This document shows positions 18,004 through 25,982 of a stretch of DNA of 59,056 bases, in pieces. The position numbers and the translations under genes are program-made. Each line of letters opens with the position of its first letter. The stretch's first letter is position 1. Below the pieces are notes generated by a model. The model had not been told where the DNA came from, ran no database searches, and saw only the letters and a program-made list of their open reading frames with translations. Source of the DNA: Nitrospinota bacterium (GTDB lineage Bacteria; Nitrospinota_A; UBA7883); the NCBI GenBank assembly GCA_029881335.1, contig JAOUMU010000004.1, positions 1-59,056 on the forward strand, read 5' to 3'.

Positions 18004-18999
18004 TCATCCAGTATGGACCCGGCCTCCACTGGCCAGCAGGCGGTCCACAGCGTGGATCGCTTTTTCGAATCGCTCATCCCACGAGCCGCTGATCTTCACA
18101 AATGGCCTGTCGCGCGATTCCAGCTCATGGAGGCAGCGCTCATGGAACCATTTGCGCTTATGGGGAAGGTAGCGTTGCGGATCCTTCACGAACGGGGTGT
18201 CCATGTCCAGTAGGAGGTATAGATCATACTGCCGTTTTTCCGCTTCCTCCCTGATCCGTGGGGGGCAGTTATCGAAAAGCGCCTCGCTCCATATGGTGGT
18301 TGTGATAAGGTCCGTGTCGCAGAAAAGGATTCGGTTGGCCATCCGGGCCATCGCCTCCTCGGAAGCCGCCTGCCCCCTGGCGATTCTGGGTATGTCCTCC
18401 GGATAGCATTCATCGTTCTGCAGGTTCAGCATCCCCCTGGCGTATTCGCTGACATATGCGGTGTCATAATGCGCCGCCAGATTTTTGGCCATGGTGCTCT
18501 TGCCGGCTGACTCGGGGCCGAACAGGCACACGCGCAATGCGTAATATGGCCGGACGCAGGGAGGGATGTATTTCCAGTTTGTCATAGGGTCGGCGCGCAG
18601 GGCCTCGCCGGAGATCGGCGCCAGTTCCCTGGCGTGGTCCACGGGGACGTACCTGGCCCCCAATACCTCCGCCAGCCGATATCCGTAATCCTCCGAGGCG
18701 AAGACGTAATCCGGCCCGGAGGAGACGAAGCGCCGGATGCTGGCGAGCCATATGTCCCAAAAATCGGGATGCTCATGTGGGAACTGGGGATTCTCATCGG
18801 CGCAATGGACCACATTCACATCTGGGAACATCTCCCTCATCCATCGATACCGCAGATCACCGGGGATAGGCTCCGCCTGGATGGTGGCCACCATCACCGT
18901 AAGCTCTTTCACATAGTTGCGGGCGAAATCCACCAGGTATTGATGCCCCAGGTGTGGGGGCAGGAACTTGCCCAGCAGCATGCCGGTTCCCTGTTTCAT
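18004..18999 (-). CDS. nadR: NadR-like NMN adenylyltransferase / ribosylnicotinamide kinase without HTH
   Basis: GKFLPPHLGH nucleotidyltransferase motif, GPESAGKST P-loop, LFCDTD; ATG overlaps the pnuC stop. Confidence 0.88.
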   Translation of the reverse strand: MKQGTGMLLGKFLPPHLGHQYLVDFARNYVKELTVMVATIQAEPIPGDLRYRWMREMFPDVNVVHCADENPQFPHEHPDFWDIWLASIRRFVSSGPDYVFASEDYGYRLAEVLGARYVPVDHARELAPISGEALRADPMTNWKYIPPCVRPYYALRVCLFGPESAGKSTMAKNLAAHYDTAYVSEYARGMLNLQNDECYPEDIPRIARGQAASEEAMARMANRILFCDTDLITTTIWSEALFDNCPPRIREEAEKRQYDLYLLLDMDTPFVKDPQRYLPHKRKWFHERCLHELESRDRPFVKISGSWDERFEKAIHAVDRLLASGGRVHTG

Positions 19000-19547
19000 A
19001 AGGTTCGCCTCCATGCAAAATATCCGATGGTGGCCAGGGCCAGGAACACCATGTAGAGTCCCGCGGTGAGGGAGAGCCCCTTTAGCGCGTATATGGCCAC
19101 ACTGATAATGTCCACAGTGATCCAGATCAGCCAGCTTTCCAGAATCTTTTTGGCCATGAGCCATTGGGCGATAAGGCTAAGGGTGGTGGTGACAGCGTCG
19201 GCGAAGGCGAAATCGGCGTCGGTGTATCTCTCCATTGTGTAGCCCAGGGCCGTGGCGGTCGCCATGGCTATCACGCTCCAGGCTGCCGCCCCCAGGCGTG
19301 AAAGCCGCGTGACCTTCAGCTCGCTATGCTTTTGGCCACCGTGCAGCCAGTTGTGCCAGCCGTATATCTGCATGAAGATATAAACGAACTGCAACCCCAT
19401 GTCCGAGTATAGCCTGGCGTCGAAAAAAATAAATATGTAGAGGGTCACCATGACCAGCCCCGTGGGCCAGCACCATATGCTCTGCCGCACGGTCAGCCAT
19501 ACACACGCCAGGCCGAATAAAACGGCGCTTGTCTCGATCAAACTCAT
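18996..19547 (-). CDS. pnuC: Nicotinamide riboside transporter PnuC
   Basis: IWCWPTG, QIYGWHNW, AQWLMAKKILESWLIWITVD; adjacent to nadR. Confidence 0.9.
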   Translation of the reverse strand: MSLIETSAVLFGLACVWLTVRQSIWCWPTGLVMVTLYIFIFFDARLYSDMGLQFVYIFMQIYGWHNWLHGGQKHSELKVTRLSRLGAAAWSVIAMATATALGYTMERYTDADFAFADAVTTTLSLIAQWLMAKKILESWLIWITVDIISVAIYALKGLSLTAGLYMVFLALATIGYFAWRRTL

Positions 19548-19822
19548 TTTGCACGTTGGTTTATTTTCAGGGTACGATAATGATAACAGACTGCCGGGAG
19601 TGTCGTTTATCGCTGATATCGAAACCCAGAGGAGATGTCCAACCCAAGAATCTCTGTGGATCATATGGTACGTTCCAATACCAGTCACGTTGTCTTGAAT
19701 CAGGACAGACGGTTCGGCTGTAGGGATTTTGTGACCCCAAACCTTGAAAACCATGAGTGTCTAACCTGTTTAAAAACAAAACGTAATCCTTGGTCGCTAG
19801 ACTGAATTTAATTGTCGATGGT

Positions 19823-19909: not shown

Positions 19910-20812
19910 ATGGACTATTTAGTGATGAGTAGAAAAAATTATATTAGAATGCTTCCGATCCTGGCCATTGCGGTGGCCGCGGGGATGTTCACCGGTTGCG
20001 GTGATGTGACGATCAACACGGATCAGTTTGGCTTGCCTGTCAACAATAATAGTACAGGCGACCTGGGCGGGAAAGGGCAAACCCCCGATCCCTCCTGGCA
20101 CAACTCATATCTGGATGGCCGTCACTCATCCTTTGTGTGCACCGATTGTCATGTTTCCACTGCCAGGACCGATATGGGAGAGACGGACCTGGCGCGGTCC
20201 CCTTTCCGGGAAACCCCTAAGGACCAGATATGCTCCCGGTGCCACATGGGGGATTACAACAGAACCTCCCTTTTCAATCACACAGTGGCAAATACAGGGA
20301 CCTACTGCAACTCCTGTCATTACTCAGACAGCTTCACCGCGCATACCAGGATTTCAGCCGATACGTATCACGGCCTGATCGGCGGATCCTGCTCATCTTG
20401 CCACTCCAACAGGACTCCCGGCAACCACCGCGCCGATGGCAGGGCTTCAGCGTGCGAGAGATGTCATAGTTACCCCAGTTGGAGCGGCGCTTCTGGCGCT
20501 CACACGGCCACCTCCAATTGCGTGAGTTGCCACGCCGCCAGGACTCCTGGCAATCACCAGAGGGATGGAAGAACCTCCAAATGTGAGAACTGCCACAATT
20601 ATCCGGATTGGAGTAACGCCTCCTTCAGCCATTCCGGGGTTTCCACCGGATGCGCCAGCTGCCACAGCAGGCATTACAGTGGTTACGCTTGCGAGTCTTG
20701 CCACACCTCCGGGATAAGCTGGTCTTATAAGCACTCAAGGGTGCGATCCGATGGGTGCATTGCTTGCCATGACGGCGACGGGCATGGCGACGGGCATGGC
20801 GATGATGACTAG
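19910..20812 (+). CDS. Decaheme c-type cytochrome, lipoprotein
   Basis: Lipobox MFTGC; 10 CxxCH; His/Asp tail HDGDGHGDGHGDDD. Confidence 0.9.
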   Translation: MDYLVMSRKNYIRMLPILAIAVAAGMFTGCGDVTINTDQFGLPVNNNSTGDLGGKGQTPDPSWHNSYLDGRHSSFVCTDCHVSTARTDMGETDLARSPFRETPKDQICSRCHMGDYNRTSLFNHTVANTGTYCNSCHYSDSFTAHTRISADTYHGLIGGSCSSCHSNRTPGNHRADGRASACERCHSYPSWSGASGAHTATSNCVSCHAARTPGNHQRDGRTSKCENCHNYPDWSNASFSHSGVSTGCASCHSRHYSGYACESCHTSGISWSYKHSRVRSDGCIACHDGDGHGDGHGDDD

Positions 20813-21053
20813 CATTCAACTTGAAGCATGTAATGTGGGGAGCATCCGGAAATTGTCCGGATGCTTCCTCGTTTCACGGCTTGGATAGGTGTACATTGGG
20901 TATAATGAAGCTGGAGACGCGCAGGATCGGCGCAAAGGTTGATAAGGCTCCAGGCTCCCGGAGTTTCTCGGAGTTTGGCTTGTAGTGAAAGAGGTCTTAT
21001 CATGAAGATGGGTCGTTTGTAGTTGATGAAGGCTGGCTGGTTCTGAATTAAAT

Positions 21054-21797
21054 ATGGAAAAACAAAATAAAACAAGTTACCTTGCGCCTCTGTTTGCGGC
21101 TTTGGGAATAGCCGTGATGACAGGGCTATTCGCCGGTTGTGGAGACATCACGATCGACACGGGTCAGCTAGGCCTGGGGGACAATTCTAACGACTTATCC
21201 AATATCGGCCTTTCTCCTGATCCCTCCTGGCACAACTCCTACCTGGTGGGCGCCCACGGCAGCTTTGCTTGTGGGGACTGCCATGCTTCTACAGCAAGGA
21301 CGGGGGCCAGTTCCCCGCTTCTGCGGGAGATGTCCGGTGACCAGATATGCGCTCGATGTCATATGGGCGATTACAACAGGACGAGCCTTTTTAACCATGG
21401 CGCATACAAGATCGGAACTCATTGCAACTCCTGTCATTATTCGGACAACTTTAAGTACCACACCAGGCCCAGCCACAATAAATATCATGAAAAGATATCC
21501 TCCTCGTGCGTTGCCTGCCACCCTGGCAAAACCCCTGGGGGACATCTGGCCGATGGACGAACCGGCTTATGTGAAATGTGCCATAAATATCCGAACTGGC
21601 AGGGGACGGGCTTTAGCCATTCGGGCGTCACCTCCGGTTGCTCCAACTGCCATAGCAAGCATTATTCGGGCTTCCCTTGCGAGTCATGCCATACCTTCGG
21701 AATCAGCTGGGGTTTCAGCCACTCCAGGGTGCGCTCCGATGGGTGTCCGGCTTGCCATGGGTCTGATGGACATGGCGGCGGGGGTCATGACGACTAA
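21054..21797 (+). CDS. Octaheme c-type cytochrome, lipoprotein, paralog of the upstream gene
   Basis: Lipobox LFAGC; 8 CxxCH; shares PDPSWHNSYL, CHMGDYNRTSLFNH and HSRVRSDGC with 19910..20812. Confidence 0.9.
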   Translation: MEKQNKTSYLAPLFAALGIAVMTGLFAGCGDITIDTGQLGLGDNSNDLSNIGLSPDPSWHNSYLVGAHGSFACGDCHASTARTGASSPLLREMSGDQICARCHMGDYNRTSLFNHGAYKIGTHCNSCHYSDNFKYHTRPSHNKYHEKISSSCVACHPGKTPGGHLADGRTGLCEMCHKYPNWQGTGFSHSGVTSGCSNCHSKHYSGFPCESCHTFGISWGFSHSRVRSDGCPACHGSDGHGGGGHDD

Positions 21798-21996
21798 ATA
21801 CGGCTTGATTTTGGCCTGCCCTGTCCCCTATATTGGGGGCGGGAGCGTGAGTGGACCGGTTGACCGGTCCTAAGTTGGGAACGAATTGGTATTCCAATCC
21901 AGAGTGGAGAGGGGTAGGGGTGTGGTGTCCGCCTTGGCGCCTCGCTTTTCTGCGTATTAAGACAAGGCAGAATTAATTATCTTTCAAGGGGGTCTT

Positions 21997-24735
21997 TTGT
22001 CGCGAAGCGGTTTTCTAGCCATTCTGCTGGCGGCGGCGCTTTCCGCTGCCTCGGCCCATGGGCAGGGTCTGGGTTCGCTGATCAGCCCTGGCCCTCTGGC
22101 AAAACCTCATGTAGAGGTGGAAGGGCTCACCAACTGCGTTAAATGCCATGCCATTGGCGCCGGAGTGCCCAGTGAAAAGTGCTTCGAATGCCACAAGGAG
22201 ATATCCAGCCGAATCACCTCCAACAAAGGCTACCATGCCAGCGTGGCGAAGAAGAAATGCCACGACTGCCACGAGGATCATAAGGGGCAGGAGTACAAGA
22301 TGATCCAGTGGCCCGGCAAGGATATGAACCGGTTCGAGCACAAGGAGAGCGGCTACCTGTTAGATGGCAAGCATGTCCAGGTGAGGTGCGAGAAATGCCA
22401 CACTGCCAAGACCAAACAGGCGCGGCAAAGCTTTCTTTTGACATCGGACACATGCCTCTCCTGCCACAAGAAGGACGATGTCCACAAGGGCGTTCTGGGT
22501 GACAAGTGCGAAACCTGCCACACCACCAGCGGCTGGAAGGGGAAGGATCTTAAGTTCGATCACGACAAGGCGTACAAGCTTGAATATTCCCATATAAAGA
22601 CCCCTTGCGAAAAGTGTCACCCGGTGATAGGGCAGTACAAAGTTCCCGGCTTTGAAAAATGTGTCACCTGCCACAAAAAGGACGATGTGCACAAAGGCGC
22701 CCTGGGTGACGCTTGCGACAAGTGCCATGTCGCCAGGACGTGGAAGGGCAAGGATGTCCTTCTAAACCACGACAAGTTCTACAAACTAGATACAGGGCAC
22801 CGGAAGACCCCGTGTGAGAAGTGCCATCCGGTGAAAGGGCAGTTCAAGGTTCCCGCTTTTGAGCAGTGCGTCACCTGCCACAAAAAGGACGATGTGCACA
22901 AGGGCGCTCTGGGTGACAGGTGCGACAAGTGCCATGTCGCCAGGACGTGGAAGGGCAAGGATGTGCTCTTCGACCATGGGAAGGTCTACCAGCTGGAAAA
23001 ATCCCACGCTGCGGTCAAGTGCGAAAAGTGCCATCTGGTAAAGGGCCAGTATAAGGTGCCCGATTACAAGCTGTGCGTCACCTGCCACCGAAAGGACGAT
23101 GTGCACAAGGGTTCGCTGGGCGACACTTGTGACAAGTGCCACGACGAGAGCAAGTGGAAGAAGGTGATGATGAATCACTCCAAGACCAAATACCCCCTGG
23201 AAGGGAAGCACCTGAAAGTGGAATGCGCCAAGTGTCACCCCAGGGCCAAGGATAAGATTTACAAGGTGGAAAGGTTCGATCGCTGCTCTTCCTCTGGCTG
23301 CCACGATACACGGCAGCGGGGGGATGTGCATGGCGAGCAGTTCCGGGGCCGAGATTGTAATGAGTGCCACAATCTGAACGGGTGGATGCCGCCGCTTTTC
23401 TCCCACTCGGATGCGAACTACAGAGGATATAAACTGGATGGGAAGCACGCCGGAGTGGCTTGCGCCAAATGCCATGTCAAAAGCGCTTTCGGTGTGGTCA
23501 ACTATCGGCCCATACGATACGACACCTGTATGGGCCCCGGCTGTCACGACATACCCAGCCGCGGCGCCATCCATGGCAAGCAGTTCAACGGGACCAATTG
23601 CGACACATGCCACGACCTGAAAGGGTGGAAACCATCGGTGTTCTCCCACGACTCCCCATCCTACACCGGCTACAAGCTGTATGGCAAACACCGGCCGCTC
23701 AAATGCGAGCAGTGCCACGCAAAGAGCCTGTTCGGCGTGGTGCATTACCGGCCTGTAAAGAGTGGTATGTGCGATGACTGCCACAAGGATCCGCATCGCG
23801 GCCAGTTCGGCTCCACCACGTGCGCCACTTGCCATACGGAAGATGACTGGAAAAAGCTGCAGTTCGACCATAACCGCAACAGCCGGTTCGCCCTATACGG
23901 CAAACATGTGGGACCAGCCTGCGCCAAATGCCACCTGAAGAAGGGAATCCTGGGGGACGCAATGGTGTGGAAACCTCTGGGCAGGGAATGCATCGATTGC
24001 CATGCTGACAAGGATAAGCACAAGGGCGCCCTGGGCAAGCAATGTGACCAGTGCCATACCGAGCAAACATGGAAGACGGATAGGTTCGCCCACGAGCTGA
24101 CAGGATTCCGGCTGGAATACGCCCACCTGAGGCTCCACTGCTCCGATTGCCATGACAAGAAGGACAACTGGGCCGGCGTGGGCGAGAACTGCCGCAACTG
24201 CCACACAGACCCGCACTTCAACCAGTTCGGGAGTGCATGCTCCGACTGCCACAACGCCAGGGATTGGGAGCCGCGCAAGTTCAAGCACGCGCTGTTCGGA
24301 TTCCGCCTTGAGGGGGCTCACAGAATAGTGGAGTGCAAGGTGTGCCACCAGAACAGGCTGTACGCCAACACACCCACGGAGTGTATAGACTGCCACAGGG
24401 CCGAGTTCTTCAGCGCTGGCGCCGCGGCGATACACTCCCCGGACAATATCGACTGCCAGTTCTGCCACAGGCCATACTCCTGGAGGCCGGCATCGGGCCA
24501 CATGCACCGATCCATGACATTTTCCGGAGCCCATAAAAGGATCCAGGGCCAGTGCGACTATTGCCACACAAACGACTATGGGCTCAAGTGGCCAGGCGCC
24601 CAGACGGAACAGGATTGCGAGTTCTGCCACATGGCCGATTACAGGAAGGAGCATAGAAATTGCCCGACCACGTGTGGCTTGTGTCATAACACTAACGATT
24701 TCGATGATGGCAAGGAGACCATAAGGTGCGACTAA
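21997..24735 (+). CDS. Very large multiheme c-type cytochrome (34 CxxCH + 2 CxxxxCH), Sec-exported
   Basis: Signal peptide ending AHG-Q; 36 heme-binding motifs counted by hand in a three-heme periodicity. Confidence 0.92.
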   Translation: MSRSGFLAILLAAALSAASAHGQGLGSLISPGPLAKPHVEVEGLTNCVKCHAIGAGVPSEKCFECHKEISSRITSNKGYHASVAKKKCHDCHEDHKGQEYKMIQWPGKDMNRFEHKESGYLLDGKHVQVRCEKCHTAKTKQARQSFLLTSDTCLSCHKKDDVHKGVLGDKCETCHTTSGWKGKDLKFDHDKAYKLEYSHIKTPCEKCHPVIGQYKVPGFEKCVTCHKKDDVHKGALGDACDKCHVARTWKGKDVLLNHDKFYKLDTGHRKTPCEKCHPVKGQFKVPAFEQCVTCHKKDDVHKGALGDRCDKCHVARTWKGKDVLFDHGKVYQLEKSHAAVKCEKCHLVKGQYKVPDYKLCVTCHRKDDVHKGSLGDTCDKCHDESKWKKVMMNHSKTKYPLEGKHLKVECAKCHPRAKDKIYKVERFDRCSSSGCHDTRQRGDVHGEQFRGRDCNECHNLNGWMPPLFSHSDANYRGYKLDGKHAGVACAKCHVKSAFGVVNYRPIRYDTCMGPGCHDIPSRGAIHGKQFNGTNCDTCHDLKGWKPSVFSHDSPSYTGYKLYGKHRPLKCEQCHAKSLFGVVHYRPVKSGMCDDCHKDPHRGQFGSTTCATCHTEDDWKKLQFDHNRNSRFALYGKHVGPACAKCHLKKGILGDAMVWKPLGRECIDCHADKDKHKGALGKQCDQCHTEQTWKTDRFAHELTGFRLEYAHLRLHCSDCHDKKDNWAGVGENCRNCHTDPHFNQFGSACSDCHNARDWEPRKFKHALFGFRLEGAHRIVECKVCHQNRLYANTPTECIDCHRAEFFSAGAAAIHSPDNIDCQFCHRPYSWRPASGHMHRSMTFSGAHKRIQGQCDYCHTNDYGLKWPGAQTEQDCEFCHMADYRKEHRNCPTTCGLCHNTNDFDDGKETIRCD
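22453..23150 (+). repeat. Intragenic tandem repeat with 207-nt (69-aa, three-heme) period
   Basis: CxxCH-(K/R)KDDVHKG units start at 22453, 22660, 22867 and 23074; the units at 22660 and 22867 are nearly identical in DNA over ~100 nt. Confidence 0.85.
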
Positions 24736-25982
24736 GGTTGACTTTGGCCTTTGTGGCCGCGCTATTCACCGTATGGGCGCTTCCCGCCTCCGCTGTTAAC
24801 CTGAGCGGTCGGCTGGCCGGATCTTACTATAATCACGATGACGATGTGTCCGAGCAGGACCGCAGCGTCAGTAGATTCAAGCTGCGTCTGGACATCACCG
24901 ATTTCATGGCTTACGACTCGGCTTTCCACTTGAAGACCATCACTCGCTCCGTTTCCGGGCACGACTATAACGGCAACCTTCCCAGCCAGAGGATCGATCG
25001 GGCCGAGTTCGAATTGAAGGGCTTGGGCGGATTCATGGACTTGCATCTGGGCAGGATGAACATCCAGGATCTTTTCTCCACCAGGGTGGACGGAGCCAGC
25101 GTCGACTTCCACCTGGGCAAGACTTTTGGCCTGGGAGTGTTCGGCGGGCAGACTCCGGATCCTTTTTCCGACCAGATCAGCTCCAGCTATTCCACTTACG
25201 GGGCATACCTCTTCAATAGAGGACAGGCCACCCGCTTCTCTCTGGGATATGTGGCCACCGCCAAGGGGGGGGAGGATTCCACATACATTTCAGGCATGTA
25301 CTATTCCCTTTCATCCAGGGCTTTCAATTGGATGGCTGATTTCAGGATGGATGAGGACAAGGTGAGGAGCGAGTGGCGGATCACCGAGGCGATGGTGAAT
25401 CTGACCTACAGGCCAAGCAGAAGGGCCAAGGTGAACCTGACCTACAGCGAGTACCGTTCCATACAGCTGTTTGAATCGATGGACTACAGCGCCAGCTACG
25501 ACATGCAAAGGGCCACCAGGGTTTCAGGCGATCTTTTTTTCCTCCACAGCTCTATGTTGTACGCACGGTTCGACGCGAGGATGCGCGACTTCGACAGCAG
25601 CACGGCGGCTATGTTCATTGGCGGTTTCAGGCAGGACGATATGTTCGGATTGCTTAATCTGGACATATCCTACAGCGGAATAAACTATTTCACGACTACC
25701 TCGGACAGAATCAATATTGTTTTGGGCGCCGACTTTTTGCGGGACCTGAGTGGCGAGATAGAGATTACATCCATCAACAGCAAGCAGGAAGGGCAGAACA
25801 ACGCTATGACCCAGTTCGTTTATGGCGCCACTGTGGACTGGAGATGGAACAACCTGTTCGTATCGGCCCTGCTCCAGTTTTCCAACGAGAAGTTCCTGGA
25901 TGTGGACGCTGTTTACCAAAACAAAGCCTCCGACCATTTCGCCACCACTTCCTACTATCTGAACATGGGGTACAATTTCTAG
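24726..25982 (+). CDS. Outer-membrane beta-barrel protein (putative porin of a porin-cytochrome conduit)
   Basis: Signal peptide ASA-V, alternating amphipathic strands, BAM-type C-terminus YYLNMGYNF; overlaps the cytochrome gene by 10 bp. Confidence 0.82.
   Translation: MRLRLTLAFVAALFTVWALPASAVNLSGRLAGSYYNHDDDVSEQDRSVSRFKLRLDITDFMAYDSAFHLKTITRSVSGHDYNGNLPSQRIDRAEFELKGLGGFMDLHLGRMNIQDLFSTRVDGASVDFHLGKTFGLGVFGGQTPDPFSDQISSSYSTYGAYLFNRGQATRFSLGYVATAKGGEDSTYISGMYYSLSSRAFNWMADFRMDEDKVRSEWRITEAMVNLTYRPSRRAKVNLTYSEYRSIQLFESMDYSASYDMQRATRVSGDLFFLHSSMLYARFDARMRDFDSSTAAMFIGGFRQDDMFGLLNLDISYSGINYFTTTSDRINIVLGADFLRDLSGEIEITSINSKQEGQNNAMTQFVYGATVDWRWNNLFVSALLQFSNEKFLDVDAVYQNKASDHFATTSYYLNMGYNF

Follow-up and report, generated by a model that had tools for sequence, protein, structure and literature searches.

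Porin-cytochrome complex 3 (PCC3) was predicted in neutrophilic iron oxidisers by He et al. (2017, PMC5566968), and its function, too, is a prediction. PCC3 pairs a porin with a very heme-rich periplasmic cytochrome of 21–27 hemes (PMC5566968, PMC10734462), a protein judged to have a length that could potentially bridge the periplasm (PMC10734462); its inner-membrane protein is described as having about 300 amino acids (aa), five helices, two WX3HX13H motifs and an SGXXG motif (He et al. 2017, PMC5566968), and the genes of Sideroxydans (Slit_1446-1449) follow the order inner-membrane protein, periplasmic cytochrome, extracellular cytochrome, porin (PMC12016527, Table 1). Geobacter supplies a second precedent, in which the periplasmic cytochrome and the barrel are conserved and the outer lipoproteins are swapped (PMC6148476). 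The subject of the present analysis is a cluster of four same-strand open reading frames (ORFs) at positions 19910–25982 of a 59,056-nt stretch of a Nitrospinota genome (contig JAOUMU010000004.1; the whole stretch is 'the window', and positions are window coordinates unless another contig is named), which encodes two predicted lipoprotein cytochromes, a giant cytochrome and a candidate outer-membrane beta-barrel.

As stated in the original prediction for this stretch, the ORF list and a count of motifs over the translations give four co-directional genes and 54 heme motifs (10 + 8 + 36). A six-frame translation of the window contains 56 CxxCH motifs, 52 of which lie within the three cytochrome genes; a concentration far above chance. 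We read the cluster as very probably encoding an envelope-spanning electron-transfer module and, with a probability of roughly 0.6, as a porin-cytochrome type conduit through which electrons would travel between the inner membrane's periplasmic face and the cell surface.

The conserved cytochrome–barrel pair

The conserved unit of this system is the giant cytochrome together with the barrel. In the window, the gene for the 36-heme cytochrome (gene C; 21997–24735, plus strand, 912 aa, TTG start) ends within that for the barrel candidate (gene D; 24726–25982, plus strand, 418 aa, GTG start), and because of this 10-nt overlap of stop and start the two are translationally coupled. Barrel homologues occur in 27 of 33 Nitrospinota genomes (MtrB_PioB proteins in 9/33), and at all 20 of the other Nitrospinota loci that were fetched—a subset, in which two loci are cut by contig ends—a multiheme cytochrome stands immediately upstream of the barrel, often with overlapping stop and start, and with 18–42 hemes where the gene is whole. 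Two metagenome contigs, on which the barrel is 25% identical, likewise place it behind a 37–40-heme cytochrome (2/2). For other phyla we obtained 16 genome loci with a Lacihabitans protein as query and scanned them with a hidden Markov model made from the Nitrospinota barrel alignment: it matches an ORF of ~530–570 aa at 14 of these loci, with E 1e-14 to 1e-37, spread over Bacteroidota, one Melioribacteraceae genome and one Acidobacteriota genome, and in these the barrel abuts a cytochrome of 15–65 hemes, following directly after it except at the Acidobacteriota locus, where it comes directly before. At the two loci that gave no barrel match the contig edge comes before the expected position. 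The link between large cytochrome and barrel thus held throughout the survey of synteny (20/20, 2/2 and 14/16 loci), which supports the conduit layout that had been proposed for the cluster.

Carriers among the other-phyla loci include Emticicia aquatica CECT 8858 and three Lacihabitans strains, and of the 401 Bacteroidota species genomes sampled, 33 carry the barrel at E ≤ 1e-10. Many of the Bacteroidota matches are listed with one internal stop (TAA, TGA or TAG), which may just reflect a match overrunning the gene end. The C-terminal 212 residues of gene C have 165 homologues at E ≤ 1e-5 among 383 candidates, some under the source names Nitrospirota, Saprospiraceae, Lacihabitans, Bacteroidales and Pseudomonadales, to which cluster look-ups add Aequorivita, Steroidobacteraceae, Ca. 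Sedimenticola and Acidiferrales. In Emticicia oligotrophica DSM 17448 the cassette sits on a 100-kb plasmid, pEMTOL02 (L059, NC_018749.1:78197-90781), where it reads in one direction: ccsA (a fused cytochrome c biogenesis gene, ahead of the cassette), two partner genes that we call F3 and F4 (see below), two cytochromes, the barrel and a GW-domain protein; the RefSeq names of these are ccsA, hypothetical, NAD(P)-binding domain protein, cytochrome c3 family (twice), hypothetical and GW-dipeptide protein. Since the whole cassette and ccsA are plasmid-borne in this strain, their location points to horizontal mobility. We found no paper on this cytochrome–barrel module in Nitrospinota or Bacteroidota, with the proviso that clusters of this kind may be listed in the supplements of PMC5566968 and PMC11475568 (the latter with 440 unnamed clusters); the words multiheme, porin and outer membrane are absent from the Nitrospina gracilis genome paper.

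Gene D is a candidate beta-barrel by virtue of its composition, its terminal phenylalanine, weak porin-family matches of its relatives and its language-model look-alikes. The protein has neither heme motif nor cysteine; it starts with a signal sequence (...ALPASA, followed by VN), has an acidic mature part of ~395 residues (pI 5.2) and ends in ...GYNF, a C-terminal Phe ending of the kind typical for outer-membrane barrels, with F418 invariant in a 15-sequence alignment (A2). Searches of Pfam and NCBIfam with gene D return nothing at E ≤ 1, and among 36 relatives there are two weak matches to Porin_4 and two to BBP2_2. The MtrB_PioB model (PF11854) matches neither gene D nor any of the 36 relatives (0/36 at E ≤ 0.1); hhalign comparison of the barrel profile with the C-terminal half of this genome's own MtrB_PioB protein gives a probability of 6%, and the profile finds nothing significant among PDB sequences (best E 0.61). 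Language-model look-alikes (score 0.98) belong to unnamed clusters, commonest in Myxococcota, Acidobacteriota and Thermodesulfobacteriota; as a link to Geobacter-type porins they are a lead only. The barrel's shortness had been presented as unusual, which overstates the matter: 18–22 strands are predicted for Geobacter-type Pcc porins (PMC4245776) and 18 for ExtB (PMC6148476). The family is rare in sequence space: a search of 1.84 billion proteins gives 54 representatives at E ≤ 1e-3, and a word-indexed set of 5.8 billion gives nine matches, one of them named as coming from a Nitrospinota metagenome-assembled genome; a word-indexed profile search with barrel alignment A1 yielded almost no additional relatives, and the distant barrel P0046, used as query, found no loci among the genome contigs.

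The giant cytochrome carries a Sec-type signal and 34 CxxCH plus 2 CxxxxCH motifs, arranged as 12 c7-like triheme modules with a period of 65–87 aa (25.3 residues per heme); with 5–7 histidines per triplet, its His content would by count suffice for bis-His ligation of all 36 hemes. Genes A, B and C fall in Pfam Cytochrome_C7 / Cytochrom_c3_2, gene C matching Cytochrome_C7 at 8.2e-36 in eight stretches; it has no relative among PDB sequences at E ≤ 0.01. Most Nitrospinota relatives keep the heme spacing at both ends, with gaps of 15/26-28/40-45/22/16-18 at the N-terminus and of 32/17/16/32/16/24/33/~21/~19 at the C-terminus, and vary in module number mostly internally, to totals of 30 to 42 hemes where the ends were compared; three relatives (L016, L023, L026) gain modules at the C-terminal end and two have a shorter C-terminal end. 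Modules 1–9 are basic (pI 8.3–9.0), modules 10, 11 and 12 having pI values of 7.2, 7.8 and 5.6. Compared module by module with phmmer, module 1 and modules 1–4 are collinear with the N-termini of 21–23-heme proteins (Sedimenticola, 148 bits; the Emticicia 23-heme protein, 125 bits), and the best match of module 11 and the sole match of module 12 is the Emticicia 43-heme type that precedes the barrel. In these comparisons gene C looks like a merger of both cytochromes of the two-gene form, and a 65-heme Acidobacteriota cytochrome behaves in the same way; because its N-terminal modules match the 21–23-heme type and modules 11–12 the barrel-adjacent 43-heme type, the N-terminus of gene C would be turned toward the inner membrane and its C-terminus placed at the barrel.

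Ahead of the pair lie gene A (19910–20812, plus strand, 300 aa, ATG start), a decaheme c-type cytochrome and predicted lipoprotein, and gene B (21054–21797, plus strand, 247 aa, ATG start), its octaheme counterpart; the two are paralogues with 51% identity, and a third, 50% identical, is found on contig C190 of this genome. Gene A has 10 CxxCH motifs, 23 His and a lipobox-like signal (...AAGMFTGC, followed by GD), gene B 8 CxxCH motifs and likewise a lipobox-like signal (...TGLFAGC, followed by GD); they match Cytochrome_C7 at 1.3e-11 and 5.8e-10, respectively, and gene A finds weak small-cytochrome matches only among PDB sequences. The C-terminal tail of gene A is acidic and His/Asp/Gly-rich, and that of gene B resembles it (20770–20812 and 21755–21797); His/Asp/Gly-rich or poly-Asp tails also end the lipoprotein cytochromes of loci L013, L014 and L031, that of L014 with ~20 consecutive Asp. 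A Gly/Ser/Thr-rich linker follows the lipidated Cys of these proteins, and tails and linkers together suggest binding of cations or minerals. Since a lipoprotein cytochrome upstream of the pair is confined to three genomes from the same family as this one, where it has 12 hemes, and to one other genome, where it has 9, genes A and B are a lineage-specific accessory outside the conserved core, and not the integral part of the system for which they had been taken.

The genes that flank the cluster are unrelated to it (an RND efflux pump, an AMP-binding enzyme, PnuC and an AAA_28 protein, a metallopeptidase, a redoxin and a GGDEF response regulator). Of these, the genes for the PnuC-type nicotinamide mononucleotide transporter and the AAA_28 protein lie upstream and are divergent (18004–19754, minus strand), their ORFs overlapping at 18996–19164. 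Promoter and terminator scans came out near shuffled expectation. Matched sequencing runs comprised two DNA rows labelled sediment metagenome and no RNA row; the best-matching DNA run may be the window's own source sample, so that the habitat label is not independent evidence.

Partner proteins and a possible electron route

Clustering of neighbouring genes placed two protein families, F3 and F4, within the fetched stretch around the pair in six related loci. F3 is a protein of ~300 aa with five hydrophobic helices (our own reading), two WX3HX13H motifs and SGXXG; across 13 aligned members from Nitrospinota and Bacteroidota, residues W119, H123, H137, W289, H293, H307, G160 and G163 are invariant (13/13). 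It matches no curated family model in Pfam or NCBIfam, and would be an inner-membrane protein with four invariant, heme-ligand-like histidines, from which we infer b-heme binding. F4 has a membrane helix at the N-terminus, a pair of [4Fe-4S] motifs and a YpdA/thioredoxin-reductase-like FAD/NAD(P) domain. It is predicted to be a membrane-anchored 2x[4Fe-4S] + FAD/NAD(P) oxidoreductase, a flavoprotein of the NAD(P) type that would face the cytoplasm. The two together have no Pfam Ferric_reduct match at E ≤ 0.01.

The Bacteroidota cassette has the order F3, F4, 23-heme cytochrome, 43-heme cytochrome, barrel, lipoprotein. In this genome F3 (319 aa, both WX3HX13H motifs, SSGLLG) is found at contig C162:8468-9427 and F4 (447 aa, 2x[4Fe-4S] and FAD/NAD(P) domain) at C162:9449-10792 (both L041); across the phylum, F4 orthologues (E ≤ 1e-30) are present in 17 of 33 genomes and lie ≤3.5 kb from the barrel in seven of these. 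Two more F3-like membrane proteins, each with two HX13H motifs, are encoded in this genome (C35:2018-3706, L042; C148:7012-10638, L039), of which one has a 9-heme cytochrome as its neighbour and the other an 11-heme lipoprotein cytochrome in its vicinity; neither has a barrel close by.

Taken together, these parts could form a continuous path. As a single wire, the 36-heme chain would have the length to cross the periplasm, with the inner membrane at its N-terminal end and with C-terminal modules that dock in the barrel or thread through it; the lipoprotein cytochromes, with their flexible linkers and acidic His/Asp tails, would provide the outer contact to metal ions or minerals. Electrons might then pass from NAD(P)H or another reductant to the flavin and iron-sulphur centres of F4, on to the two b-hemes of F3, and through the giant cytochrome and the barrel to an extracellular acceptor. 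As to direction, we lean slightly toward outward flow, since F3 and F4 would give a route from NAD(P)H to the periplasm, like that of NOX/ferric reductases; inward flow is clearly the less probable of the two, and flow that is reversible, or of some other kind, takes the small remainder.

A bolder and altogether more tentative proposal is that the pair, F3 and F4 make up a self-contained, mobile machine that wires cytoplasmic NAD(P)H (or ferredoxin) to the surface past the quinone pool, ancestral and near-universal in Nitrospinota and serving other carriers too. Such a machine would be a bacterial NOX/ferric reductase extended by a heme wire through both membranes, whose role in Emticicia and Lacihabitans might be, for example, the reductive mobilisation of iron or manganese, or that of an electron sink.

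Other redox genes of this genome include a canonical Mto/Mtr-type cluster (C64:7139-12877, L035, and C76:1-3146, L038), with a tetraheme cytochrome, a 4Fe-4S protein (Fer4_11), an NrfD-type membrane protein, a c554-like triheme cytochrome, a decaheme cytochrome (Paired_CXXCH_1) and an MtrB_PioB barrel; the barrel is divided between the ends of two contigs, and behind it stands a truncated cytochrome that has 18 hemes or more. Heme-copper oxidase genes are present. In a search for molybdopterin proteins the longest ORF had 957 aa and no NxrA-sized gene was seen; as the genome is 92% complete, this does not prove that such a gene is absent. Within a run of small cytochrome genes, C148:53561-55129 encodes a protein of 522 aa that combines an EB_dh domain with two heme c motifs and fits the 'alternative NxrC' described for Nitrospina gracilis; EB_dh (PF09459) was tried as a marker for nitrite oxidoreductase and set aside as uninformative, for it matches ~520-aa diheme proteins of alt_NxrC-like description.

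Weighing the conduit reading

A number of observations weigh against a conduit. The genome already has a canonical one of Mto/Mtr type, and its F3–F4 pair, on contig C162, is unlinked to the cluster; ten barrel-bearing Nitrospinota genomes have no F4 match to the query used. Conservation along gene C is uniform (0.41–0.47, excluding Cys and His) and therefore gives no hint as to which end docks. Three distant barrel relatives (P0035, P0037, P0040) have long N-terminal extensions with one or two repeats, which by eye looked SPOR-like (peptidoglycan-binding); they show no obvious cytochrome link, so that not every member of the wider barrel family need be a cytochrome partner. The cassette also occurs in cultured freshwater Bacteroidota that are not known for metal respiration.

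The alternative that survives best retains the conduit and reverses the current: Fe(II), Mn(II), reduced minerals or partner cells would feed electrons into the respiratory chain, as is proposed for MtoAB and PCC3. PCC3 is found in iron oxidisers; MtoA and Cyc2 homologues are reported from Nitrospinota genomes assembled out of metagenomes (PMC11442690, PMC9769843); and the present genome has heme-copper oxidase genes as well as the Mto-type cluster. The recurrent neighbour F4 argues the other way, as a cytoplasm-facing NAD(P)-type flavoprotein, the reduction of NAD(P)+ from outside being uphill. So do the cultured Bacteroidota carriers, which we take to be aerobic heterotrophs, and on balance we regard inward flow as the less probable direction.

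More doubtful is the suggestion that the outer membrane is not crossed at all, gene C serving as a capacitor or relay across the periplasm, with the barrel no more than its anchor in the outer membrane. Thirty-six closely spaced, bis-His-capable hemes would suit the storage of charge, a role also raised for PCC3 (PMC10734462); an outer cytochrome, lipoprotein or other, is missing next to the pair at most loci (e.g. L015-L017, L019, L021-L024), and a separate Mto-type conduit exists in the genome. A dedicated, translationally coupled barrel kept over several phyla would, however, be a costly anchor, and in the window's family the pair is preceded by lipoprotein cytochromes whose acidic tails resemble mineral-binding ones.

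Still less probable is a reading modelled on PCC3, where an 'extracellular' cytochrome gene stands ahead of the porin: the barrel would act as an export or anchoring pore that secretes or tethers gene C, in whole or in its C-terminal half, as a wire lying mainly outside the cell. In Sideroxydans PCC3 as in the Bacteroidota form, the name 'extracellular' goes to the cytochrome immediately ahead of the porin, modules 11–12 of gene C resemble that barrel-adjacent type, and the extra modules of L016, L023 and L026 are at the C-terminal end; yet the N-terminal third of gene C is collinear with the 21–23-heme type, which would be periplasmic, and the cluster contains no component of a secretion system. 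That gene D is an ordinary solute porin, placed here by chance, draws on the weak Porin_4 and BBP2_2 matches (2/36 each) and can be dismissed in the face of pairing at 20/20, 2/2 and 14/16 loci from several phyla, where the stop and start codons frequently overlap.

Nitrospinota are known mainly for aerobic nitrite oxidation. Should the cluster be a working conduit, as we prefer to read it, then most members of the phylum, including presumed plain nitrite oxidisers, would have a built-in means of exchanging electrons with solids or partner cells, and their role in sediments, vents and on corroding steel would have to be read differently. Searches of curated libraries (Pfam, NCBIfam) give the cassette no specific name, despite the presence of the barrel in 27/33 Nitrospinota and 33/401 Bacteroidota genomes. 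Its interest rests on this spread through the phylum (27/33), on its cross-phylum and plasmid occurrence, on the want of a curated model for barrel or F3, and on its cultured carriers (Emticicia, Lacihabitans), which make the role of PCC3-like giant-cytochrome systems testable by genetics.

Relation to described systems

The MtrCAB, MtoAB and PioAB conduits would work alike, with a cytochrome sheathed by an outer-membrane barrel and an outer cytochrome. The present cluster is not a member of that group: its barrel is not of the MtrB/PioB family (PF11854), gene C reaches 24.9 bits against DmsE/MtrA (TIGR03508; cut-off 192.2) and gene A 17.6 bits against OmcA/MtrC (TIGR03507; cut-off 209.3). None of the four proteins attains the curated cut-offs for MtrA/DmsE, MtrC/OmcA or MtrB/PioB, in keeping with the original prediction, which saw no MtrA/MtrC resemblance.

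Two further comparisons concern parts of the system. The 'nanowire' cytochromes of the Geobacter GSU1996 type are polymeric c7-type proteins of four tandem triheme modules; gene C shares the tandem triheme c7 plan, but has 12 modules and is coupled to a barrel, and it shows no match to NCBIfam nanowire_3heme (TIGR04257) at E ≤ 1. By analogy, F3 and F4 would work like eukaryotic NOX or ferric reductase (FRE), in which an NAD(P)H flavoprotein feeds two transmembrane b-hemes held by paired His on two helices—a likeness that He et al. (PMC5566968) drew for the inner-membrane protein of PCC3. They differ from NOX/FRE in that the function is split over two proteins and the dehydrogenase is of TrxR/YpdA-like type plus ferredoxin.

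The Geobacter Pcc/Ext conduits (OmbB-OmaB-OmcB; ExtABCD) likewise combine a small barrel with a periplasmic multiheme cytochrome and with lipoprotein cytochromes, one or two in number, and share with the present system a conserved inner pair and variable outer lipoproteins. The barrel is of a fitting size (~395 mature residues); a crude, sequence-based count gives ~20–25 strand-like segments. Genes A and B carry predicted lipobox-like signals (...FTGC, ...FAGC). In this comparison by description the gene order differs, and at E ≤ 1 no NCBIfam model named for OmbB/OmaB/OmcB or ExtA-D matched the cluster proteins. The periplasmic cytochromes of Geobacter have 5–15 hemes, against 36 here and 18–42 in relatives whose gene is whole; as a mark of novelty, the heme number singled out in the original prediction is overstated, partners of 21–27 hemes having already been predicted for PCC3.

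PCC3 is the closest known system, and the present cluster is probably its relative. Here too a porin stands beside very heme-rich, repeat-built cytochromes thought to span the periplasm. The gammaproteobacterial 21-heme proteins share the N-terminal heme spacing of gene C and fit the periplasmic cytochrome of PCC3 by size and heme count; from heme count and taxon we infer that they are PCC3 members. The motif set of the PCC3 inner-membrane protein recurs in F3, including the copy on contig C162 of this genome, and F3 is adjacent to the pair in the Bacteroidota form, whose order (inner-membrane protein, cytochrome, cytochrome, porin) equals that of PCC3. To call this an undescribed conduit type, as was first proposed, is thus an overstatement. 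The differences lie in the details: PCC3 has a periplasmic 21–27-heme protein and a separate extracellular cytochrome, whereas one 36-heme protein apparently merges both here; PCC3 porins are predicted with up to 42 strands, the 418-aa barrel being much smaller in what is a comparison by description only; and, unlike PCC3, the present system has small lipoprotein cytochromes as putative outer partners, F4 beside the inner-membrane protein, and in this genome an inner-membrane pair that is unlinked to the cluster. The system is accordingly a variant of a predicted porin-cytochrome kind and not a wholly new kind.

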